Sequence record: PX651718.1
DNA from: a phage
Reading direction: 5' to 3' (one strand)
Length of the DNA stretch: 52,949 nt
Below the pieces are notes generated by a model. It was not told the DNA's origin and ran no database searches. It worked only from the letters and a program-made list of their open reading frames with translations. Position numbers and translations under genes: made by a program. Positions 1 through 52,949 of the stretch are shown here, piece by piece. Numbering within the stretch: the stretch's first letter is position 1; every line of letters begins with the position of its first letter.

Positions 1-54
1 AGAGCAATCTGTTCGACAGATGTGTCGTTGGTTCGAATCCAACCTCGTCCGCCA
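1..54 (+). tRNA. 3' portion of a tRNA (anticodon arm, variable loop, T-arm, acceptor 3' strand, CCA); anticodon tentatively UCG (Arg)
   Basis: T-stem GTTGG (27-31), loop TTCGAAT, CCAAC (39-43); acceptor 3' strand CTCGTCC (44-50), discriminator G, CCA (52-54); D-stem 3' strand GAGC at 2-5. Anticodon arm is non-canonical (ATCTG/CAGAT with 5-nt loop, or 4-bp stem with loop GTTCGAC). Confidence 0.6.
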
Positions 55-601: not shown

Positions 602-1559
602 GTGAACAAATGCTCGCCATCGCATTTCATTTGGCAGTCCGGTACGGGACTTTAAACACACGTATATCATAGTCGAGGGAGTGCGCGACTTTAAATAACG
701 AGACTCTAGCTACTTGTAGCATAGTAGGTGTAATTCTTGGTGCTCTGGGCATAACACATAATAAATTGCTGCCTCCTAGGATTGGAACGTCCCGTAATGA
801 ACGCGAGAAGTTCAGGTGGTCACTTCCTAAAACAGTGTCCGAGAACACCCTCGCCAAAGTGCTTGAGAACGTTAGCTCTGTCTTGCCAGCATTAATGGCA
901 CGTTGGCCGCGTAAAGGCCACAACGTCTGACCAACGTATCGGTCGCCAAATTCAATGGGATTTTCGTATGTACGGGCTTGACCGTGGTGAAACGACCTGA
1001 CTGGTTCGATTCCAGTGAATCCCCCGAACAATGGATTCGTAGAGTTAATTAAACCTGCACGATGGGATAGGGATGAAGCATCCGAGGCCGACTGTGTAAT
1101 TGCTGGCTTACTATAAACCAGCCGAATCCACCAATCGGGAGAAAGTGCTGTGGACGATATTGTATCGTAGGTGGTCGCATTCCACCCTCCCAACTTCTAC
1201 CAAACAGTTATGCCTCTGTTCAAAAGGCTCAAGAGAGCGTCTGGCATACCGTAGCGATACGGCTTAGTTGCGCTGATTGTGTTGTGCAGAAAGAAAGTTC
1301 AGGCTTTCGTTTGGGTTACTCCTCATCCCGAAGTTAGCTGGATTCAAAATCCAGACTATGTTCCTATACACATGAAATATGCAAGTCGAGGGTTCTTAAT
1401 GTTCAAACATGATGCGAGCATTAAGCGGGTTTATACTTTTCCCCGATGGTCCCCATAAACAAGGCTGATTCACTTGGGCGGTTCGAATCAAATTTAATAA
1501 GTGTTTTGTAATGTTCGTAATAGTCAGGGCACTTACTTAAATTTTAACTGGAGAGAAAC

Positions 1560-1846: not shown

Positions 1847-2497
1847 ATGATTACTGCAACACTCGTTGACCACATGGGCAGCGACCTTACAACTGTTAAT
1901 GCTGCACGAGTTTCTTATGGTGCAGAGTCGCATGAAATATCTTTACGTGACGAGAAGCTGATTGAGTTTCTTGCAAAGCATAAACACATTACGCCGTTTC
2001 GCCACGCACAGGTAACATTGCGTTGCAAAGCTCCAATCTTCATTGCACGTCAGCTTGGCAAACATCAAACTGGCTTTAGTTGGAATGAGGTTAGCCGTCG
2101 TTACAAAGATGGTGAAGCAATCTCTATTGAATGCTTTGTACCAGATGTTGTATTTGGTCGTCCTGAAAAGTTGATGACTCAGACTGCACAACCGTTGCCA
2201 CAAGATTTTGCTGACGATATTCATTATCGCATGGAAAGCCATAACAAGGCTTGCATCGCAGAGTATGAAACGTTAATTGGTTTGGGGATTGCCCCAGAGC
2301 AAGCTCGCATGGTTCTTCCACAATCCATGATGACTGAATGAATTTGGACTGGCTCACTTTATGGCTAGGCATCTATGTATAATCAACGTTCCTCCGAACA
2401 TGCGCAATACGAAGTTCGCTTGTTTGCGGAAGAAGTGAATAAAATCATGTCAGAACTATTCCCAATTTGTTGGAAGGCTCTGACCAACCAGGAATAA
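1847..2497 (+). pseudogene. thyX: flavin-dependent thymidylate synthase (ThyX)-like reading frame with two in-frame stops (TGA 2339-2341, TAG 2366-2368) and altered catalytic motif
   Basis: N-terminal 164 aa (track ORF 1847..2341) align with ThyX (AARVSY, PFRHAQ, KAPIFIARQ, SRRY); the same frame continues after the TGA as IWTGSLYG, then TAG, then ASMYNQRSSEHAQYEVR... to TAA at 2495-2497, matching the ThyX C-terminus with no frameshift; the RHR motif is replaced by KHQ. Confidence 0.7.
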
Positions 2498-2501
2498 ATA
2501 A

Positions 2502-4265
2502 ATGAACGTCAAGCAATGTGTGGCTAAGATTAAGCACGATGTACCAGACTGTAAATCCACATCTGGCAAGTCTTTACAGGTTTGGTTGAATGTCGATGAA
2601 GCTGGTAATAAGAACTTCTCTGGTTACTGCTTTGCGTGTGGCGTTCTGGTACCAAATCCTTATGGCAATAATCCGGAGAACATTCCAGAGATTAAAGTCA
2701 AAACTCCAGAAGAGATTCAGGAAGAAGTTGATGAAATCACTGCTTGTCCTCCGTTTGATTTAACCCATCGCAGCATTGAGCCGGAGTTCTGGAAGGCTGC
2801 TGGTGTTCGACTTCTGTATTCAGAGTATGATGGGAAGACTCCAAATGCTCTGGCGCATGGCTACACCAAAAATGGTAAACTTGTTCGTTGGAAGATTAAA
2901 CTTCTGAACAAGAAAGTTATGTGGTCGGTTGGTGACACTCAGGGTAACGACCCTTACAACTGGATGGCTGCAAAAGCAATTGGCGGTAAGACACTGTTCA
3001 TCACAGAAGGTGAAGAAGACTGCATCGCATTGCGTCAAATCCTCAAGACTATGAACCGTGGTGGTGCATACGAAGATTTGGATTTTGCTGTAATTAGTTT
3101 GAGTGACGGGAGTGATTCCGTACACAAATGTTTGTCACCAGTTGCAGAAGAAATTAAGCAACGTTGGGAGCAGGTTGTTATCGTATTTGATGATGATGAA
3201 CCTGGACGTAAAGCTGCAAAAGAAGCGTGCCGATTGTTGCCTGGTGCAATGATTGCAACACTTCCAGCTAACGATGCCAACGATTGTTTGAAGCGTGGCT
3301 TGCTAAAAGCTACTCAATCAGCTGTTGTATTCCGTGCTGCTCGTCCTCTTCCTACAGCACTTGTCAACAAAGAACTTCTTATGGAAGAGCTTGATGACGA
3401 GGTTGAACAGGGTGTGGATTATCCTTGGCCCAAGTTAACCGACTTAATGTTTGGTCAACGTCGAGCCGAAGTTATTACAATCGGTGGTGCAGAAGGTGGT
3501 GGTAAAACTACCTTGTCCCGTCAGATTGTGCATCACAACATCACCAAGCACGATTGGGGAGTGTTTACTGCATACATGGAGGAAACTCCTACAGAAACAC
3601 TGCGCCGAATGGCTGGCCTTAATGACAACTTGCCATATTGGGAGCCTGCGTTTACTCGTGAAGACCCTCGATATGATGAAGCTAAGTTCCGTCAAACTGC
3701 TGCGAAGATGCTTCGTAACATGGAGATTTGGGACCGCAAGCAAGCTGGAGAAGACCCTTATGAAACCTGGGATGGGTTAAAGACGATTCTTCGTCAGATT
3801 GGACCAGACATTGATATGTTTGTCCTTGATAACTTAACCTACTTATCGGAAGGGATTTCTGCCTCAGAGAAGAACGACTTCTTAGGTAAGCTGTATGCAG
3901 ATATTACTAAGCTGGCAGACCAATACCAGTTCCATGTGAATATTCTGTCGCACCTTAACCCTGTGGCAAAAGGCCAACGACCTCATGAAGATGGTGGACG
4001 TATTAAGAAGTCAGACTTTACTGGCTCCCGTGCTGCTGCCAAATATTCTCATGGTATGTTCGGCTTTGAGCGTAATAGCCAGGCAGTTGACCCAAACTGT
4101 TCTATTATTCGTTCCATCAAAGCTCGTAAGAGTGGTAAAACAGAAGGCTTCAAGACGTATTATGACACCGAATCTGGTCGAATTATTCAACGTTCTTGGG
4201 ATGACTCTCTGTTCGAAACTAAAGAGATTGTTCAACTTACTAAGAAGAACGGTCCACACCAATAA
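2502..4265 (+). CDS. bifunctional DNA primase/helicase (T7 gp4-like)
   Basis: N-terminal Cys-rich zinc-binding segment; TOPRIM motifs (ITEGEED, VIVFDDDEPG); DnaB-type Walker A (GGAEGGGKTT) and Walker B (MFVLDNL). Confidence 0.9.
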   Translation: MNVKQCVAKIKHDVPDCKSTSGKSLQVWLNVDEAGNKNFSGYCFACGVLVPNPYGNNPENIPEIKVKTPEEIQEEVDEITACPPFDLTHRSIEPEFWKAAGVRLLYSEYDGKTPNALAHGYTKNGKLVRWKIKLLNKKVMWSVGDTQGNDPYNWMAAKAIGGKTLFITEGEEDCIALRQILKTMNRGGAYEDLDFAVISLSDGSDSVHKCLSPVAEEIKQRWEQVVIVFDDDEPGRKAAKEACRLLPGAMIATLPANDANDCLKRGLLKATQSAVVFRAARPLPTALVNKELLMEELDDEVEQGVDYPWPKLTDLMFGQRRAEVITIGGAEGGGKTTLSRQIVHHNITKHDWGVFTAYMEETPTETLRRMAGLNDNLPYWEPAFTREDPRYDEAKFRQTAAKMLRNMEIWDRKQAGEDPYETWDGLKTILRQIGPDIDMFVLDNLTYLSEGISASEKNDFLGKLYADITKLADQYQFHVNILSHLNPVAKGQRPHEDGGRIKKSDFTGSRAAAKYSHGMFGFERNSQAVDPNCSIIRSIKARKSGKTEGFKTYYDTESGRIIQRSWDDSLFETKEIVQLTKKNGPHQ

Positions 4266-4330
4266 CAGAGCTGCTACGCTGCATGGTTCGCCCACCAGCG
4301 TAGCCCTCACCAATCCATTGGAGCCATACT

Positions 4331-6265
4331 GTGTTGTATCCTTGGGAAAATATGTATGCCAGTGACATTGAAACAACTGGTTTGTTGGAGCAAATGCGTA
4401 AGCAAGCTGCACCACGTCTTCACAACATCGGATATATTGATGTTCTAACCCGTGAAGAAACTGTAATAGAGTGGACCGACAGAAAGTCTATCCAGGCATT
4501 TCTGGATACAGGCCCAACATTAATCATGCACAACGGCGCAACCTTTGACTTTGAAGCACTGAGGTTCCTGGGCTACGACGTTTCAAAATGTACACTAATT
4601 GATACTTTGTTTATCAGTTGGTATCTGCAACCTCGTCGTGTTAAGCACGGCTTAGAAGGTTACGGCGAAGAGTTTGGTGTGCCAAAACCAGTCATTGAAG
4701 ATTGGGAAAATCAAACTCAAGAAGAGTACAACCATCGTGTGATGGAAGACTGCAAGATTCAGTTGAAGCTGTGGGAACAGCAATACATTCAACTATTGAA
4801 GACTTATAAATCTCCTAGCGAAGTTAAGCGCTTCGTTGAATATCTGATGACAAAAGCTCGTCAACAAGTTATTCAACAACGTACTCGCTGGAAGTTAAAC
4901 ATTGAGAAGGCATTGGCATTTAAGGCCAAGCTGGAGCCAATGATTAAAGAGAAGACGGACGCATTGGAAGCATCAATGCCACGTATTCCAGAATATGTTA
5001 TCAAAACCCGTCCAGCTAAATGCCACAAGTTGAACGGACAATTGTCTTCCGCTGGCATAAAGTGGAAAGCTATTTGTGATGCAAACGGCTTGGACTGGAA
5101 AGACCCAGACCTGGCTATCAAGGTTCTTAAAGGTTACAAGAATCCTAACGCTGGTTCTCATGTGCAAATTAAAGATTGGTTGTTCAGCCTGGGCTGGGAA
5201 CCGGAAACCTTTAAGTTTGACCGTAACAAGGAAACAGGTGAAACTCGCCAGATTCCACAAATCACTGTGAAGGATGAAGATGGCAATCCTGAAATATGTC
5301 CGAGCTTGCATAAGCTGGCGGAAAGAAACCCCGACTCTGGTATTCAACATCTTATTGGGATGGGCGTGTATAAACACCGTCTGTCTGTTGTTAATGGCTT
5401 CCTTCGCGACGTCGATGAAGATGGGTTCCTTACTGCACGATGCGGTGGCCTTACCAATACTTTACGCCTTAAACATCGCGAACTTGTTAACCTCCCTTCT
5501 ATTCGTGTATTTGGCGGTGAAGAACTGCGTTCAATGCTGGAAGCGTGGCGTGAAGACTACGAACAGTTAGGCTCTGACTTGTGCTCACTGGAAGACCGTT
5601 GTAAACACCACTTCCAGTGGATGTATGACCCTGAATACGTTAAGAAGCAGTTGGCACCAGACTATGATGCCCACCTTGCAATCGGCGTAATTGGTGGATT
5701 TATTACAGAACAGGAATCTCAGGACCACAAGGACGGGATTAAGAAGTGTAAACAACGTCCAATGTTTAAGACCACAAACTATGCTTGTCAGTATGGTGCT
5801 GGTGTGCCAACTGTAGCTCGTTCTGCTGGCTGTGACCAGACTACTGCTGCACGACTGCATAAAGCATATTGGGACTTGAACTGGTCTATTAAAGAGATTG
5901 CTGCGAACACCAAAGTTATCACAGTTGATGGTCAGATGTGGCAACAGAATCCAGTAAACAAATTCTGGTATTCGTTGCGTACAGAGAAAGACCGATTCTC
6001 CACATTGTGTCAGGGTACTGGTGCATATGTGTTTGATATCTGGTGTAACAACATCATTGCAATTTGTAATGAACGTTGGGGCTGTGACCCGCTTCTGTCT
6101 GGACAATTCCATGATGAATTGATTCTCCAAGTTAAGAAAGGTTTCCGTGATTTGTGGACGGACTTGCTTAATGAAGCAATGGACCGGACCAACAAAGAAC
6201 TTAAACTTAACCGTGATTGTGCATGTGATGTACAGTTCGGTGATAATTATGCGGAGATTCACTAA
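4331..6265 (+). CDS. DNA polymerase, family A (T7 gp5-like) with 3'-5' exonuclease domain
   Basis: Exo I motif DIETTG; pol motif B (KQRPMFKTTNYACQYGAG); motif C (QFHDELIL); GTG start at 4331 with GGAG 8 nt upstream. Confidence 0.9.
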   Translation: MLYPWENMYASDIETTGLLEQMRKQAAPRLHNIGYIDVLTREETVIEWTDRKSIQAFLDTGPTLIMHNGATFDFEALRFLGYDVSKCTLIDTLFISWYLQPRRVKHGLEGYGEEFGVPKPVIEDWENQTQEEYNHRVMEDCKIQLKLWEQQYIQLLKTYKSPSEVKRFVEYLMTKARQQVIQQRTRWKLNIEKALAFKAKLEPMIKEKTDALEASMPRIPEYVIKTRPAKCHKLNGQLSSAGIKWKAICDANGLDWKDPDLAIKVLKGYKNPNAGSHVQIKDWLFSLGWEPETFKFDRNKETGETRQIPQITVKDEDGNPEICPSLHKLAERNPDSGIQHLIGMGVYKHRLSVVNGFLRDVDEDGFLTARCGGLTNTLRLKHRELVNLPSIRVFGGEELRSMLEAWREDYEQLGSDLCSLEDRCKHHFQWMYDPEYVKKQLAPDYDAHLAIGVIGGFITEQESQDHKDGIKKCKQRPMFKTTNYACQYGAGVPTVARSAGCDQTTAARLHKAYWDLNWSIKEIAANTKVITVDGQMWQQNPVNKFWYSLRTEKDRFSTLCQGTGAYVFDIWCNNIIAICNERWGCDPLLSGQFHDELILQVKKGFRDLWTDLLNEAMDRTNKELKLNRDCACDVQFGDNYAEIH

Positions 6266-7436: not shown

Positions 7437-8459
7437 GTGAGTAAGAAACGAGTTTTGTTGCTGGTTGACGGCGACATGGTTGCATTCAGTCACTGTGCTG
7501 CTGAGGAATACGGCAAAGATTCAGAAGATATTAACTTTGCTAAGATTCAAATGTCAATGGATTCCAAGATGGAATTCCTTGCGAAACGTGTAGGAGCTAC
7601 AGAAGTAGTTACCTGCATTTCACCATCCAAAACATTCCGCAACGTTCTTGCCGAGAATTACAAAGGCAATCGTGATGATGTTTGGCGACCAGAAAACTTG
7701 AAGAATGCGAAAGCACATCTTATGGTTGCCTGGAATGGCGTATGGATGAAAGGTCTGGAAGCAGATGACCTCCTTGCCGTATTCGCACGTCATGAATACG
7801 AAATGACAATGGGCAAACGTAATGAGATTAAGAGCCTCAAGCGCATTGGTCCTTGCACATATGATGAAGTCTGGATTGCGTCGCTGGACAAAGACTTGCG
7901 ACAAATCGGGCAGAATGGTGGTGCTGGTCCAGTAATTAAACATTACCAATGGGAACGAGAAACCCAAGGTATTGGTGAGAAGATTGTAACTCCTCAGGAT
8001 TACGGCGAACTCAAGTTAATCATCAAGGACAATGGCAAATCGAAGAAGAAAGAAGTTAAAGGCAATGGTCCCAAATTCTTCTTACATCAATTGCTTATTG
8101 GCGACTCAACGGATAACGTTATGGGTTGCGGAGTTCTTGAAGAAAGAATCTACAAAACTGGTGCCAAAGCCGGAGAAACTTATTTCCGTCGTGACGGCAT
8201 TGGTGCAGTTGCTTCATTCGAAATGCTGGATGGTACAACCTCCTATGCAGAAGGTTTGAAGAAAGTTATTGGTGCATATATTGTGCGCTTCGGAGATGGT
8301 TGGGAACAAGAGCTGCTCAAAGTAGGTCGCCTTGTTTACATGCACCATCAAATTGAAAAAGGTAATTGTGTTCGCTTGTGGCATTACAAGAACATTAACG
8401 AATACTTTGACCTTAAAGAGAATCGTATCCTCACTCAAGAAGAGTACCTCCAGAAATAA
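7437..8459 (+). CDS. 5'-3' exonuclease / flap endonuclease
   Basis: N-terminal motif RVLLLVDGDMVAF typical of the 5'-3' exonuclease family; GTG at 7437 with GGAG about 9 nt upstream (track ORF begins at an upstream TTG, 7422). Confidence 0.8.
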   Translation: MSKKRVLLLVDGDMVAFSHCAAEEYGKDSEDINFAKIQMSMDSKMEFLAKRVGATEVVTCISPSKTFRNVLAENYKGNRDDVWRPENLKNAKAHLMVAWNGVWMKGLEADDLLAVFARHEYEMTMGKRNEIKSLKRIGPCTYDEVWIASLDKDLRQIGQNGGAGPVIKHYQWERETQGIGEKIVTPQDYGELKLIIKDNGKSKKKEVKGNGPKFFLHQLLIGDSTDNVMGCGVLEERIYKTGAKAGETYFRRDGIGAVASFEMLDGTTSYAEGLKKVIGAYIVRFGDGWEQELLKVGRLVYMHHQIEKGNCVRLWHYKNINEYFDLKENRILTQEEYLQK

Positions 8460-8470
8460 TTGGAGTTGGA

Positions 8471-8995
8471 ATGGCTTACGGTTATTGTGGAACGGAAGCC
8501 AAGTTTGTATCTTGGCTCCAATCTGCTATTCGAAGTGTTTGGTCTAAACACCCAAGCAAACTTGCGCTGATACAATCTCGACGCATTGCATTGAAGGTCG
8601 GTGACTCAAAGAAACCAATCTTCCACATTCAATGCTACCATTGCAAGAAGTTGTATAAGCTCAAAGAGATTGAAGTAAACCATAAAGTTCAAGTTGGTGG
8701 CCTCCTTAAATTGGAAGACCTGCACCGCTTTGTGGACAACCTTCTACTGGTTCAGCCAGAAGATTTGGAATTGCTGTGTAAAGATTGTCACGGCATTATT
8801 ACATACATGGAACGATATGGTGTGTCCCGTCGTGATGCAGTCATTGAGAAGAAGTGTATTGCGTTTGCCAAATTGTCTGACGAAGAGCAAATTGCTAAGT
8901 GCAATCTTGCTAAAATAGAGCCAGTTCCTAAAACCAAAATCGGACGTAAGAATGCTGTCCGAGAATACCTGAGAAAGAATCTTAATGTCTATTAA
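8471..8995 (+). CDS. HNH endonuclease
   Basis: CYHCKK ... EVNHK ... CKDCHG, an HNH motif bracketed by Cys pairs. Confidence 0.7.
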   Translation: MAYGYCGTEAKFVSWLQSAIRSVWSKHPSKLALIQSRRIALKVGDSKKPIFHIQCYHCKKLYKLKEIEVNHKVQVGGLLKLEDLHRFVDNLLLVQPEDLELLCKDCHGIITYMERYGVSRRDAVIEKKCIAFAKLSDEEQIAKCNLAKIEPVPKTKIGRKNAVREYLRKNLNVY

Positions 8996-9740
8996 GCTCC
9001 TCGCTGATGGTACAAGATATACAAAGGCTCACGCACATGATTGGGAAGACCCAGATTGCCGTATCAAAGGGCGCTGTGAACTCTTCATCAAGATTGACGG
9101 AATTCGAGCTATCCGTAATAAATCAGGTAGTGTCTGGAGTCGTAATTCCAAACCCCTACCTCATTTGGACCACTTACAGTTCAGAGATGCTGAGATATTC
9201 CGTAATAGTTGGAATGAGACTTCTAGCATCCTCGGACGTATTGACCCGCCAAGCGTCCCTCTAACCCAGGACAATGTGTATGAGTTGAGCGATGGTGCTG
9301 TTGACCCACGCTTGTACATCGGCTGGTGCAAAGACCCAAGCAATGAAAACCTTAAGGCATTGATGGATAAATATCTGGCGCTTGGTCATGAAGGTATTAT
9401 TGTCCGTGATGCAAAAGGTAAATGGTGGAAGATTGTACCATATAAATATGCCGATGTGAAGATTACTGGTATGAAAGAAGGTACTGGTGCTCTCAAAGGT
9501 ATGTGTGGTTCTATCTCCTCGAACTACGGCAGTGCTGGCTCAATGGTGAAAGATTGTCTGGCAGACCACGGTATTCCAGAATCTAACACATTGATTCGTA
9601 AGTGGTTGTGGGAACATCGCCACGAGCTAATTGGTTCGATTATGCAAGTTCGGTATCGTGAGAAGACAGAAGCTGGTAAGTTCCGGTTCCCGTCACTCGT
9701 TCGTTTACGTGCAGACAAAAGTGAGGAAAGTTTTGATTAA
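8985..9740 (+). CDS. ATP-dependent DNA (or RNA) ligase, minimal nucleotidyltransferase type
   Basis: Motif I KIDGIR (FIKIDGIRAI); motif IV-like EGIIVRD; motif V-like KWWKIVP. Confidence 0.65.
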   Translation: MSIKLLADGTRYTKAHAHDWEDPDCRIKGRCELFIKIDGIRAIRNKSGSVWSRNSKPLPHLDHLQFRDAEIFRNSWNETSSILGRIDPPSVPLTQDNVYELSDGAVDPRLYIGWCKDPSNENLKALMDKYLALGHEGIIVRDAKGKWWKIVPYKYADVKITGMKEGTGALKGMCGSISSNYGSAGSMVKDCLADHGIPESNTLIRKWLWEHRHELIGSIMQVRYREKTEAGKFRFPSLVRLRADKSEESFD

Positions 9741-40299: not shown

Positions 40300-40340
40300 G
40301 GGCTGTCATCGAAAGGTGATGGCCCTTTCTTTATTCTTTA
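40300..40340 (+). terminator. rho-independent terminator after the RNA polymerase gene
   Basis: GGGC ... CATC-GAAAGGT-GATG ... GCCC stem-loop followed by TTTCTTTATTCTTTA. Confidence 0.55.
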
Positions 40341-40373
40341 TTAATTAAATCCTTTAATTCCCAATATTCAAGC

Positions 40374-40405
40374 AATATTGCTGCATGTAATATTGTTTCA
40401 ATATT
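40374..40405 (+). promoter_or_regulatory. cluster of CAATATT / AATATTG half-sites
   Basis: CAATATTCAAGCAATATTGCTGCATGTAATATTGTTTCAATATTCG: four half-sites within about 45 nt. Confidence 0.35.
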
Positions 40406-40409
40406 CGAC

Positions 40410-40425
40410 ATTAGTTGGATGTGAA
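40410..40425 (+). promoter_or_regulatory. conserved promoter-like motif ATTAGTTGGATGTGAA (consensus copy)
   Basis: Exact consensus. Confidence 0.45.
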
Positions 40426-41074
40426 GTAAAAGAATACGGAGAAATATTACTCACTTCGTTCGTGAGTTACCGCATGTCATGTTGAATCATTCTAGAAACA
40501 TTTAGCATGTCAGCTTTGAGTTACAGCGTTGTAATGATGTGGCAATCATTGAACTCCCTGGGTTGGCCACCTACAGTTCCAGCAACCATGACTTAGAGTA
40601 GGGATATCTATCCGAAACTTGTACTTCACCTATAGCATGTTCAATTGCGACAATATTGCTCCATCTCCTATTATAAAGGCCCACCCACAAGCCGGGAGAT
40701 AACTTTGGTAATATTGGAACTTTTGGACATGCTTCTTTCTTTCTTTCTACAAGAAATCGAAAGAAGAGAAGAGTCGGAGCAAAGCCTCTCGTTTACACGA
40801 AGAAGCCGCCCGATTTTGAGCAACAAATATTGTGACAATTGCGTCGCAGTATGGCATGTAAATATTGCTACAAATTGGCATGTTGGAATGTGGCAGAATT
40901 GTTAGAGGACTAATCACCTCGAAGATACAATCGTCTACCAATCTGGCATGTTAATTTTGTAACAGTATTTGTGCCAATTTCGCATGTAATAGCTGTATCA
41001 GTATTGACCCAATATTCTTGCAACCCGCATGAATACTGGCTTCCAGCCAAGCGAAGGCTTTATCATCGCATGTA

Positions 41075-41091
41075 AATATTGTGACAATATT
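41075..41091 (+). promoter_or_regulatory. perfect 17-bp palindrome AATATTG-TGA-CAATATT preceded by GCATGTA
   Basis: Exact inverted repeat; GCATGT(A/T)AAT...TTG..ACAA units recur at 40853, 40945, 40981 and 41217. Confidence 0.4.
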
Positions 41092-41128
41092 GGGATAAAA
41101 CCCTTTATTTAATTAGTTTTATTATGCT

Positions 41129-41153
41129 GTACATGGTCGGTTTTCCGTACCTG
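41129..41153 (+). repeat. third copy of the GTACATGGTCGG...GTACCTG direct repeat
   Basis: GTACATGGTCGG is identical to 37885-37896. Confidence 0.5.
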
Positions 41154-41285
41154 CTTGCTCCAATCTTAATGTGCCAAATACGTTAAGTATGGGAGTAAAC
41201 CTGTAATTAATGGTGCATGTTTAATTGTGACAAAATTCGTCTATTTGGCAGATGAGTTAGTTGCAATTAAGCATGTTCATTTATC

Positions 41286-41301
41286 ATTAGTTGCATGTGA
41301 A
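41286..41301 (+). promoter_or_regulatory. conserved promoter-like motif ATTAGTTGCATGTGAA
   Basis: 15 of 16 match to consensus. Confidence 0.4.
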
Positions 41302-41399
41302 TAAGACCAAATCTCTGTAAATTCTGCTGAAATTGTGTGACAGATTTTAGAGAGATTATGTCTCCAAGCTAATCATTGTAGTTTTTCGACACTTTGTGT

Positions 41400-41440
41400 G
41401 TCACATATATAGCCTGTGAAAAACGTGTGGTATATTGCTG
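41400..41440 (+). promoter_or_regulatory. possible host sigma70-type promoter with extended -10 (TGGTATATT)
   Basis: TGnTATATT at 41428-41436 about 150 nt upstream of the first early ORF; weak -35. Confidence 0.25.
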
Positions 41441-41591
41441 GATTGCAACGCGCCCACCAGACTAGGAAGTCACTGATGGCGGCACACACAGGAATACTAT
41501 ATAACTCCCTACAACTTTAAGGTGGATTGAGGTAAGACAAGACCTCCACAATCGTTCTGTAGGGAGTTTTCCTTTAACTTTGGAGAATAAA

Positions 41592-48972: not shown

Positions 48973-49276
48973 TTTAAATATTGCTGAACTTGAGGCTGGA
49001 TTGATTGTTCACCACCAGCCTCGAAACACTTTCTATCGTATTCTTGGGCCTACAAAGATTAAAACTCACTGCGGAAGTTGGGTGGATGGGTTTGCTTACC
49101 AAGAAGTGAAGAAGTACGGGGGACCATACTTTCTTAAGTATTGATTCTTCTACCATCTACACACGACCGAAAGAGCTATTTGACTCAGACTGGAAAACAC
49201 TATAGTTCCAGGCGGGTTTCTTCGAAGTGCCAAGCGGGTTTTGTGCTCGCATTGGCCTTCGGCTTTAGTCTGAAAC

Positions 49277-49292
49277 ATTAGTGGGATTTGAT
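49277..49292 (+). promoter_or_regulatory. promoter-like motif variant ATTAGTGGGATTTGAT preceded by TCTGAAAC
   Basis: Upstream TCTGAAAC is shared with the copies at 49417 and 51572. Confidence 0.35.
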
Positions 49293-49416
49293 TCTGACCA
49301 CTTAGGGAAGAAAGGCATTATACACTTATCGCCAAATGGGTGTCAAGCACTTTCTTCATTTATTTAATTTATTCTTATTATTCTTTTTGTTTGGAATATT
49401 GGAATAATTCTGAAAC

Positions 49417-49432
49417 ATTAGTTGGAGATGAA
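49417..49432 (+). promoter_or_regulatory. promoter-like motif ATTAGTTGGAGATGAA preceded by TCTGAAAC
   Basis: Immediately upstream of the ATG at 49433; the motif's GGAG doubles as RBS. Confidence 0.45.
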
Positions 49433-49609
49433 ATGATTAAAGTTCTGGAAAAAGATACAGTAACTTTCACACGCCAATGTCGGTTATGTGCTTCTGTTGT
49501 GTCTTATGAATTCTCGGACTTAAAGATATACACAGGGAAGAATGACCGAGGATATTTCGCATATAGATTTATCACTTGTCCTGTTTGCAAGAAAGACATT
49601 CGACATTAG
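49433..49609 (+). CDS. small zinc-ribbon protein (58 aa)
   Basis: CRLCAS ... CPVCKK; ATG at 49433, in frame with track ORF 49340..49609. Confidence 0.5.
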   Translation: MIKVLEKDTVTFTRQCRLCASVVSYEFSDLKIYTGKNDRGYFAYRFITCPVCKKDIRH

Positions 49610-49620
49610 TTGGAATTGAA
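49605..49620 (+). promoter_or_regulatory. promoter-like motif ATTAGTTGGAATTGAA
   Basis: 14 of 16 match; followed by about 640 nt without a convincing ORF. Confidence 0.4.
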
Positions 49621-50255
49621 ACAACATCAGATAAGAACTTTGTAACTAGGTAGTCCGTCTGGTACCAAGGCGTGTGAGAACGTTCGATTCGTTCTACAAA
49701 GTTCTTTTCGATGGAATGTTTCCATCATATTACATTTATCTTTTAACATAGGCCATAGGGCCGGAATACTTCTTCGCAGAAAAGCTATTCACTTGTTATA
49801 GGCGATGTATTGGGATGAATTGGAACTAAATAAGCAAGCTGTTAGGGCTGAATAATTAGAGGGTTATGCCTCATGCTTATGTTAGTCATTCGAAAATAGG
49901 TTTGTGCCACAAGCTGCTGGTGCTCTGAGGAAGTCGGACAAACAGGGCTTAGAGTGGCATAATCCGCACAAAACCGCGCCACCAGCTATGCCAAAGCGGG
50001 TGGATTGGGTGAATGTATTGGGAAGGGTTGCAAAGCCTCTGTGACACGCCTGAGCCGCAAGGCGACGACACTCATGTGATTAGCGTATCGCACCCTAACG
50101 GGAGTAACCCTTCACCAATGCAGTTATCCAGAATTGACACAAACGGTAGGCAGCGGCCCGATTTTCGGCCTTCCTGCGCTACCCTGTGGCCTGTTCATGG
50201 GCCAAAAGATGAGAAGAGAAGTCACAAACACTGAATCGAAAATTGGAGAGTTCCT
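49621..50255 (+). ncRNA. candidate structured non-coding RNA region (unclassified) downstream of a promoter-like motif
   Basis: No credible ORF on either strand; several stable hairpins including tRNA T-arm-like GAGAACG-TTCGATT-CGTTCTA with acceptor-like pairing CTTTGTA/TACAAAG (49638-49702). Confidence 0.3.
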
Positions 50256-51540: not shown

Positions 51541-51571
51541 GTCGTTTGACGAATCAGAGCAGTTCTGAAAC

Positions 51572-51663: not shown

Positions 51664-52002
51664 ATGGCTAAGATTGTAACCGTAACTCAGTACGAAGCTA
51701 ACGATGGTTCCCTGTTCCTGACCGAAGCAGAGTGTAATGCACATGACTTCAAACTGGAAAACGGTGCTAAAATTGAGAAAGCTGCCGAAGCGTACCTGAA
51801 CACCGTTGGCGCTATCGACCGTTCTCGCTCCATGCAGAAGAACACCATCGAGCAGTTCCTGGCATTCTACCTGCCGTGGGTTGAAGCTGGTGAGCCGGAA
51901 GTTGAGCGTACTAAGTTCGATACTCCGAAAGAAGCTAAAGTTGCTGACGCAGTTGTCGCAGAAGCTGCCGAAGCTGCTGTAGAAGAAGCTCCGGTATTCT
52001 AA
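51664..52002 (+). CDS. hypothetical protein with acidic Ala/Glu-rich C-terminus ending in F
   Basis: Track ORF with AAGGTATA RBS; codon usage resembles highly expressed E. coli genes; ends AEAAVEEAPVF. Confidence 0.55.
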   Translation: MAKIVTVTQYEANDGSLFLTEAECNAHDFKLENGAKIEKAAEAYLNTVGAIDRSRSMQKNTIEQFLAFYLPWVEAGEPEVERTKFDTPKEAKVADAVVAEAAEAAVEEAPVF

Positions 52003-52908
52003 GTTGCCGATGGCAAACTTGAGAGACTAAGCTAAATCGATCTGGCATGCACTGGAAGTTTTCCGGTGCTGCCTTGAACCCACTCTGAAAGGAAGAGTGG
52101 GCTTCAATGAGCATTCTTGTGATTAGAGTTGGGAGGAAGGCCGATGCCCAAGCTCATGGCCCAGACGAGAGTGTTCATTGAAGTAGTTTTCTGAGTCTTA
52201 CGACGGGCCTAAACTGCCTGGAGTTATTGCGACTGTTTTATTCATTTAAAATAAATGCAAATGATTCTGAAATGCGAGTTGCGGCTTAATTAAATTTAAG
52301 TCCTCTCCGTGGTCTTCCAATCCCACGTAACCAAATTTGGCGCATTGTGGCTTCGAGATGTGATTAATAAATCGGAGCAATAATTAATTTGTATTCTGCG
52401 ATGCAATGCAGGCTTAAGTCCCTCAGTGCGCGTGGGGATGTGACAGAGTACAAACTTAATTATGCAGTTGGATATTTCTAGAGGACGGACGAGCACACTG
52501 GAATGTCTTCAATTGGTTTAGTGTGAGAAGCTATGCCAATATGAAACGTAACTCCTTGGGGAAGTGCTCCTCTGGATTTCCCTCCACACAGGAATCTCAA
52601 GCCTGTGGCAGCGACTTCGAAGCTGCACTGCGTAACCTAAATTCACCCTAAAGTGAGTTGCCCTGAGTATGGAAATAAACTGCTCATAACCGATGGTATC
52701 TACAAAGGTAGATTAAATCAGGTTGCCTGTTGGTACTTGGGGGTTCAACACCTGCTTGCACTCGCAAAGTAGTGCCTTGTACCTGAGATGAAGTGAGTCG
52801 GGACCATCAATCCCACGTTATGTCAAAACACAGTAGGCGGCTCACAGATTCTACAAGCCTCGCAGTTCGGGGAAAACCTGCGTTATCAAAACCCCCCCCT
52901 CATTATTT

Positions 52909-52949
52909 GGACGAGTAGCTCAGAAGGTTTGCATTGTGCTCAGTCAGGT
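52909..52949 (+). tRNA. 5' portion of the same tRNA (acceptor 5' strand GGACGAG, D-arm) interrupted by about 20 nt of extra sequence
   Basis: GGACGAG at 52909-52915 is the exact complement of CTCGTCC at 44-50; GCTCAG occurs twice (52918-52923 and 52938-52943) around a 14-nt insert; joining 52923 to 52944 and on to position 1 gives a standard 75-nt cloverleaf. Confidence 0.5.

Follow-up and report, generated by a model that had tools for sequence, protein, structure and literature searches.

Large and intricately folded RNAs are rare in bacteria and phages, and most of those known are ribozymes or major machines; the cryogenic electron microscopy structures of two of the giant RNAs, GOLLD and ROOL, are recent. 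On a smaller scale, the transfer RNA (tRNA) region of phage T4 encodes species 1 and 2 (rnaC/rnaD), small non-tRNA RNAs that are matured by host tRNA-processing enzymes and for which we know of no function. GOLLD is phage-encoded, adjoins tRNA islands, and contains a variable region able to hold tRNAs, with ROOL being similar in these respects; the function of both is unknown (PMC12286853, PMC5737381). Here we analyse a gap between genes at positions 602-1559 of sequence record PX651718.1, a stretch of 52,949 nucleotides (nt; hereafter the window) that holds, circularly permuted, the genome of a myovirus of the phiEcoM-GJ1 type (Chaseviridae, Cleopatravirinae), with Escherichia phage PO103-1 as its closest record (98% identity, first 2.6 kb compared). 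We propose that this gap is probably a new multi-domain non-coding RNA locus of Cleopatravirinae, transcribed from the + strand, in which tRNA-like cassettes are processed and two large domains become free RNAs. The locus is conserved across genera, displays covariation in both domains and in one cassette (the D RNA cassette), exchanges cassettes between close relatives, encodes NCCA tails on many of these, and lacks any coding signal. Judged from sequence comparison, it would constitute a previously undescribed RNA class of a known general kind, matching no described family.

The layout recalls that of GOLLD, as the locus is phage-encoded, has a tRNA-Arg gene ~550 nt upstream, and carries tRNA-like cassettes between domains 1 and 2. 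Like GOLLD and ROOL, it is large (roughly 0.9 kb), multi-domain, pseudoknot-rich, encoded by a phage and situated beside tRNA genes; as in GOLLD, the conserved domains are split by a variable linker with tRNA-type units. In GOLLD, however, only the 3' region is conserved and the linker holds real tRNAs, whereas here both flanking domains are conserved and the linker units are non-decoding tRNA mimics; moreover, unlike GOLLD and ROOL, the present locus resides in lytic myoviruses that infect Gammaproteobacteria and possess a T7-like RNA polymerase. This parallel suggests, by analogy, a comparable role in the infected cell. We claim analogy to GOLLD/ROOL and not membership because the covariance models of these families find no match here. 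More broadly, Rfam searches at gathering and relaxed thresholds (positions 1-2600 at E≤10; five related loci at E≤1) matched neither domain to any family, including GOLLD, ROOL, transfer-messenger RNA (tmRNA), YrlA, group I/II introns, RNase P RNA, 6S and riboswitches. A tmRNA, standard or permuted, was also considered and rejected, ARAGORN and Rfam being negative in the gap and the frame that follows the pseudoknot not being conserved. Set against T4 species 1 and 2, the RNAs proposed here would be larger and more numerous, and their processing is a prediction.

Domain 2 (1200-1503, + strand) is a structured RNA of ~300 nt, defined by RNAalifold, paired cells, double changes and covariance model R1. 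It begins with an H-type pseudoknot at 1203-1228, in which AACAG/CUGUU is crossed by GCCU/AGGC, and its multi-helix core is closed by the long-range helices CGUC/GGCG and GCAUA/UAUGC. When five genera are aligned, several single strands are invariant, i.e., GCGUCUGG.AUA, GUUGCGCUGAUUGUG, CUCCUC, CACAUGAAAUAU.CAAG and AGGGUU, and between them lie hairpins that differ in sequence and stay paired. The curated structure contains 59 pairs, including the pseudoknot and the two closing helices; in the corresponding alignment (A2), standard pairs occupy 93.5% of cells versus 32-48% in slid controls, for which the 3' partners were shifted by 1-3 columns. Both sides have changed in 21 pairs versus 3-7 after sliding, a count matched by none of 500 shuffles. 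Model R1 recovered full-length copies on which it had not been trained (L018 at 62 bits, SSEM1 at 45, Aioli and L019 at 39 each), and the counts were the same or better once untrained sequences were added by covariance-model alignment (A3). The 7-bp stem with 3-nt loop that the original prediction had singled out is present, at 1338-1354 (CTGGATT-CAA-AATCCAG, z score -4.2), and is one variable, covarying helix of this domain. At the 3' edge, a terminal hairpin (UAAGUGU../..GCACUUA; 1498-1535, + strand) ends 15 nt before the Shine-Dalgarno sequence GGAGAG (1550-1555) of the open reading frame (ORF) at 1560. Its inner helix (GUGGA/UCCAC) has lost both arms here and in PO103-1 and is kept in relatives, where compensatory versions occur (GUGGA/UCCAC, GUCGG/CCGAC and GUCUG/CAGAC).

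Domain 1 (668-872, + strand; ~205 nt) is likewise delimited by a covariance-model match, paired cells and double changes. It consists of the hairpins GUCG/CGAC, a covarying GCUAC/GUAGC, a pseudoknot module, UGAAC/GUUCA and CGAG/CUCG, together with a helix surrounding the invariant loop UCCUAAAAC. The alignment (A6) and the model built on it (R2) comprise seven sequences from other genera and metagenomes, none belonging to the group of this phage, and R2 nonetheless finds 668-872 over its full length (95.6 bits, E 4e-27). Paired cells make up 95.8% of A6 versus 28-41% in slid controls, with double changes in 10 pairs versus 0-3 (0/500 shuffles match). R2 gives one match in most related loci and two overlapping-model matches in Bp10; neither Myduc nor the Nefertitivirinae gave any. 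Other genera have little sequence between block A (668-706) and block C (811-872), which together form a ~190-nt RNA with several hairpins, an H-type pseudoknot and extensive compensatory change. Within the group of this phage, the pseudoknot module of domain 1 is replaced by block B (739-777, + strand; GGUGCUCUGGGCAUAACAC..AUUGCUGCCUCC), a pseudoknot-type module of the same topology recognised from the order of blastn blocks and from the alignments; Faunus, 4HA13, L017 and L149 carry this block 5' of domain 1. An extension of the domain (872-949, + strand) adds the hairpins GCCA/UGGC, GGCC-GCGUAAA-GGCC and GACC/GGUC followed by GCCA (ACCA in GJ1), and phage flopper has a compensatory GGCC/GGCC in the last hairpin of the extension. 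Conserved structure, on which the original prediction had made its RNA reading depend, is thus abundant, and the picture of a gap otherwise devoid of features gives way to one in which a pair of large, conserved and strongly covarying RNA domains takes up most of the sequence.

Between the domains lies a linker of swappable cassettes. In an alignment of eight close relatives, positions 950-1200 break up into successive units with CCAAAU(U/C)AAUGG at the boundaries of each. One of them, the D RNA cassette (1033-1133, + strand), is cloverleaf-like: ACCA follows its acceptor stem GGAUUCG/CGAAUCC, its middle arm is long, and in place of a T arm it has a non-canonical analogue. It is kept in the GJ1 group, Faunus and L018; its long middle arm contains a compensatory C-G to U-A change, the sequence of its T-arm hairpin has been replaced with pairing retained, and fold z scores are -3.05 for the GJ1 copy and -2.76 for that of Faunus. 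Cassette 4' (1137-1191, + strand) has a GGGAG/CUCCC stem, a hairpin and a T-arm-like GGUGG-UCGCAUU-CCACC; it is shared with ST32 and missing from PO103-1, and GJ1, Mangalitsa, Pel53, Bp10 and flopper hold a different cassette (GGGC..GCCC plus ACCA) in the same slot. Other genera have units of their own at varying positions, often directly 5' of domain 2 (phiA050, L158, Aioli and L018), with that of L019 ~150 nt upstream of domain 2 and that of L017 3' of the domain 2 core. All 13 units that we tabulated possess terminal stems of 4-8 bp, followed in eight of them (1033-1133 included) by NCCA, and most start with GG immediately after an AAUNAAU leader. The nominal binomial P for the eight tails (4e-12) is indicative only, because some units were noticed for their CCA and were chosen partly by eye. 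Neither ARAGORN nor the Rfam tRNA model at E≤1 calls any of these units, those in relatives included.

Faunus (L004) additionally encodes, upstream of its spanin genes, four tRNA-like genes of 83-105 nt (413-495, 775-871, 878-980 and 1058-1162) with perfect 7-bp acceptor stems, canonical T arms and the tails ACCA, TCCA, ACCT and CGCA; ARAGORN calls none of the four, and the first alone reaches the Rfam tRNA threshold.

The element that had first drawn attention to the gap is the cassette at 957-1023 (+ strand). As originally described, and with all coordinates right to about 1 base, GGGATTT (957-963) pairs with GAATCCC (1017-1023) at 7/7 positions around the T-arm-like hairpin ACTGG-TTCGATT-CCAGT (1000-1016), and the D and anticodon arms are missing. 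RNAfold of 957-1024 returns exactly this fold at -21.8 kcal/mol; with a z score of only -1.5, the fold taken by itself is not beyond chance. The stacking of a 7-bp acceptor stem (GGGAUUU/GAAUCCC) on a 5-bp T arm (ACUGG-UUCGAUU-CCAGU) is the geometry of tRNA, tmRNA, YrlA and viral tRNA-like structures, and the UUCGAUU loop with its closing G-C pair agrees with the tRNA T-loop consensus (UUCRANY); sibling cassettes further resemble tRNA in having a discriminator base and CCA. The element itself differs from tRNA, tmRNA and YrlA in that it has an irregular middle with no D arm, no anticodon arm or loop and no tag ORF, and ends in CCG, with CCGA following where a discriminator base and encoded 3' CCA would stand. 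The ARAGORN and Rfam searches advised for it produced no tRNA call at 957-1023 (ARAGORN 0 genes; no match to the Rfam tRNA model RF00005), the sole Rfam match being to tRNA-Sec (17.4 bits, E=5). Besides this phage, only PO103-1, Ecp_YSF and flopper carry the element, which is bounded by the repeat CAATGG(G)ATT and in flopper takes the place of the next cassette, the D RNA; GJ1, Mangalitsa, Pel53, Bp10 and ST32 lack it. Of the two possibilities offered at the outset, a decayed tRNA or a tRNA-like structure, the element is tRNA-like and one of several interchangeable cassettes; the gap as a whole is more than a decayed tRNA and is no mere spacer.

The TTCGATT loop does recur, as had been noticed, in the hairpin GAACG-TTCGATT-CGTTC at 49678-49694. 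It serves there as the T arm in a second tRNA top-half (49638-49701; extended stem 49633-49706) with a perfect 7-bp acceptor-like stem, CTTTGTA/TACAAAG, UUUU after it and a fold z score of -2.5. A phage-promoter-like site (49603-49619) is located 18 nt upstream, and the extended stem shows a compensatory A-U to G-C change in GJ1. A small promoter-proximal RNA and an attenuator are both conceivable readings of this top-half.

A syntenic gap of 0.8-1.3 kb, running from the spanin genes to the small ORF and thyX and un- or sporadically annotated, is found in at least five genera. Its carriers include GJ1, PO103-1, Mangalitsa, Pel53, Bp10 and Yersinia phages, as well as Faunus (Faunusvirus), Aioli and SSEM1 (Loessnervirus), 4HA13 (Sabourvirus), Aeromonas phage phiA050 and several viral metagenome contigs. 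In the first 2 kb, inter-genus conservation by blastn consists mostly of blocks from the gap and not of genes: two gap blocks are 97% identical to Erwinia phage Aioli, and the best thyX segment reaches 78%. The papers on these phages that we consulted make no mention of the region. A search for the exact 15-mer GTTGCGCTGATTGTG in IMG/VR was uninformative, with about 100 chance matches; two more specific patterns recovered only Chaseviridae-type contigs and one chance match, a single scan of JGI metagenomes gave three true and five chance matches, and a pattern scan of a bacterial and archaeal collection (185,579 reference genomes) gave none. Because these scans recover only Chaseviridae-type contigs, the RNA family looks restricted to Cleopatravirinae. 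In Nefertitivirinae, tightly packed ORFs occupy the place where the gap would be and the RNA domains were not found. We had also entertained a host origin for the gap and rejected it, blastn against 5,426 Escherichia coli genomes having yielded no match.

Two relatives depart from this arrangement. In Proteus phage Myduc (L165), both RNA domains are absent and the gap contains a normal tRNA-Arg(CCT) at 2951-3026; in the thyX slot (3928-4497) it encodes a 189-amino-acid (aa) nucleotidyltransferase (DUF6932, 30 bits; poly(A)-polymerase/CCA-adding head domain, 20 bits and below cut-off) labelled by its depositors as a CCA-adding enzyme. In the contig L149 (IMG/VR 2816332609_000005, 7550-9250), block B and domain 1 are followed by ~1 kb that is poor in ORFs, domain 2 is not detectable and thyX is absent; the ORF-poor stretch may hold a different 3' RNA domain.

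The strand is indicated by the paired cells themselves. G-U pairs outnumber A-C combinations by 40 to 8 in domain 2 and by 12 to 5 in domain 1, an excess expected of RNA read from the + strand, which is also the strand of all genes annotated in the 50 kb of GJ1 that we inspected. The gap contains no promoter motif of the GJ1 phage type, of which there are eight elsewhere in the window, and positions 1-2000 contain no terminator-like site on the + strand. We thus envisage that the locus would be transcribed by read-through from a promoter-like site at 51570, together with the tRNA-Arg and spanin genes. Host tRNA-maturation enzymes would then recognise the cassettes, with RNase P cutting between AAU and GG and 3' trimming proceeding back to CCA. 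Such cutting would yield discrete stable RNAs, release domains 1 and 2 to act as RNAs in their own right, and separate the lysis message from the replication message. More tentatively, and with considerable doubt on our part, the locus could be a giant modular RNA akin to GOLLD and ROOL whose domains form a higher-order particle or scaffold displaying CCA-tailed tRNA mimics; as an equally tentative part of that possibility, the mimics might serve, e.g., as decoys or sponges for host factors acting on the acceptor ends of tRNAs, such as RNase P, the CCA-adding enzyme or defence toxins by which these 3' ends are modified or cleaved. Were a particle of this kind to exist, the role of GOLLD/ROOL-type phage RNAs would become open to genetic tests, its carriers being lytic E. 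coli phages that have a T7-like RNA polymerase. More generally, because the E. coli, Yersinia and Erwinia phages that carry the locus are culturable and genetically tractable, deletion, swapping and expression experiments are straightforward.

Several points weigh against our reading of the gap as a processed non-coding RNA locus. Transcription, processing and RNA stability are all matters that we infer. Folded as single sequences, both domains do no better than shuffles, with insignificant z scores (-0.45 and +0.15), so that the case for them is entirely comparative. The sequences compared are, moreover, kin within one subfamily, which inflates the shuffle statistics, an effect that the slid controls and the matches to untrained sequences mitigate in part. 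Nor need the two domains belong to one functional RNA: L149 has domain 1 without domain 2, and a search by eye brought to light no convincing conserved pairing between them. The GOLLD model finds no match (positions 1-2600 at E≤10; five loci at E≤1), nor does the ROOL covariance model. As for the cassette at 957-1023, it has no CCA tail, is dispensable in most relatives and may well be neutral. In favour of a rival explanation, domain 2 always lies directly upstream of the phrog_32967 ORF at 1560 and thyX, and the thyX-less relatives L149 and Myduc are without detectable domain 2 when searched with filters off.

These last two associations are what would be expected under the main rival explanation, namely, that domain 2, and conceivably all of the gap, serves as a cis-acting leader to the operon composed of the small ORF, thyX and primase (a sensor resembling a riboswitch, a regulator of translation or a 5' structure that stabilises the mRNA) and not as a free RNA. 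The stop of the terminal hairpin 15 nt before the Shine-Dalgarno sequence would suit such a leader as well. The co-occurrence with thyX, however, has an n of 2 and may reflect phylogeny, and no expression platform is visible, because there is no terminator-like site and the Shine-Dalgarno sequence at 1550-1555 falls outside all conserved helices. Domain 2, with its 300 nt, pseudoknot and some 12 helices, is also bigger than one would expect of an aptamer; it matches no known riboswitch family; and a leader would leave domain 1 and the CCA-tailed cassettes unexplained, so we regard this explanation as unlikely. Alternatively, the position of the gap directly upstream of the primase/helicase and DNA polymerase genes, coupled with a long non-coding structured RNA, could denote a replication origin whose transcript acts as a primer or forms an R-loop, in the manner of ColE1 RNA II. 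The gap contains no iterons, long inverted repeats, AT-rich stretch or skew shift, its G+C content is above that of its flanks, and nothing in the data bears on priming; we consider an origin very improbable.

Two further explanations concern the cassettes and the strand opposite to them. That the gap might be a graveyard of decayed tRNA genes, the remnants of a former array, is suggested by cassettes which retain only acceptor and T-arm geometry and are gained and lost freely between close relatives, by the element at 957-1023 with neither CCA tail nor ARAGORN or Rfam call, and by the several odd, long tRNA-like genes nearby in related phages. Decay or neutrality is plausible for that single element. 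For the gap as a whole, we find this improbable: the D cassette is shared by phages of Escherichia through to those of Erwinia, shows compensatory changes and has a T-arm hairpin that was replaced yet still pairs; NCCA tails and the leader motif are maintained; and domains 1 and 2 show strong covariation and no tRNA shape. A protein gene on the minus strand is the explanation to which we attach next to no credence. The antisense ORF at 627-1193 exists as reported at the outset (- strand, TTG start, 188 aa), and its length here and in PO103-1 (188 and 185 codons) speaks in its favour. Its frame, however, is open only in these two phages, the longest antisense ORF in the other close (GJ1-group) relatives being 41-88 aa; cassette gains and losses break it, with indels inside it that are not divisible by three; it has no Pfam or PHROG match; and it runs opposite to all genes annotated in the inspected 50 kb of GJ1. 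We thus judge it not to be a gene.

On the + strand, the original statement that no ORF exceeds about 30 codons holds for ATG starts (longest, 32 codons) and not for GTG/TTG starts, which give 54-59 codons. These mechanical ORFs (766-930, 1100-1267 and 1279-1458; up to 59 codons) are not conserved and have no matches in Pfam or PHROGs. On neither strand, therefore, is there a credible ORF in 602-1559: no open frame is kept in relatives and no family matches. Small "hypothetical protein" coding sequences in several deposited genomes overlie domain 1, domain 2 or cassettes, e.g., SSEM1 (L164) 2276-2890 and Mangalitsa (L003) 2304-2498(-), and also in PYps3T, DE15 and 2KOFFS; these are probably over-annotations. 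Recognition of a non-coding RNA locus would thus correct the annotation of these genomes, and would reveal in this phage family a whole group of tRNA mimics with CCA tails that go undetected in standard tRNA and Rfam scans.

With respect to its neighbours, the gap follows the 3' part of tRNA-Arg, a small ORF and the spanin pair, and precedes a 76-aa ORF at 1560 (phrog_32967, of no known function), thyX and primase/helicase, in that order. The earlier designation of the gene bordering the gap as the first replication gene is thus displaced: the ORF at 1560 belongs to phrog_32967 and stands before thyX and primase/helicase, and is therefore not itself a known replication gene; primase/helicase does follow, further on. 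The tRNA-Arg(UCG) gene is split by the ends of the permuted sequence, its 5' part being at 52910-52949 and its 3' part at 1-54 (both + strand; Rfam tRNA partial match of 22.4 bits to the latter, and sequence read). The GJ1 copy, annotated as tRNA-Arg, scores 41.8 bits with the Rfam tRNA model. The gene reaches 95 nt because its D region holds some 20 nt of inserted or duplicated sequence (GCTCAG...GCTCAG). It escapes ARAGORN in PO103-1, Mangalitsa, Pel53, flopper, L015 and the Yersinia phages, and the same program labels it tRNA-Leu(cag) in GJ1, Bp10 and ST32.

Downstream, thyX (start 1847) contains two in-frame stops, TGA and TAG, at 2339-2341 and 2366-2368; both positions are Trp TGG in PO103-1, GJ1 and Mangalitsa, and both changes are G-to-A. 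Three explanations suggest themselves: inactivation of the gene in this isolate, errors of sequencing, or nonsense mutations requiring suppression. HNH homing-endonuclease genes occur around thyX at differing points in relatives (L002 3990-4433, L008 2457-2909, and the 3' ends of L009 and L010), with none in this phage. Finally, GJ1-type genomes contain further long ORF-free stretches (NC_010106 2848-4046, 10429-11029 and 13557-14095), corresponding to about 40300-41500, 49200-49850 and 51900-52500 in the window, some of which have predicted phage promoters.

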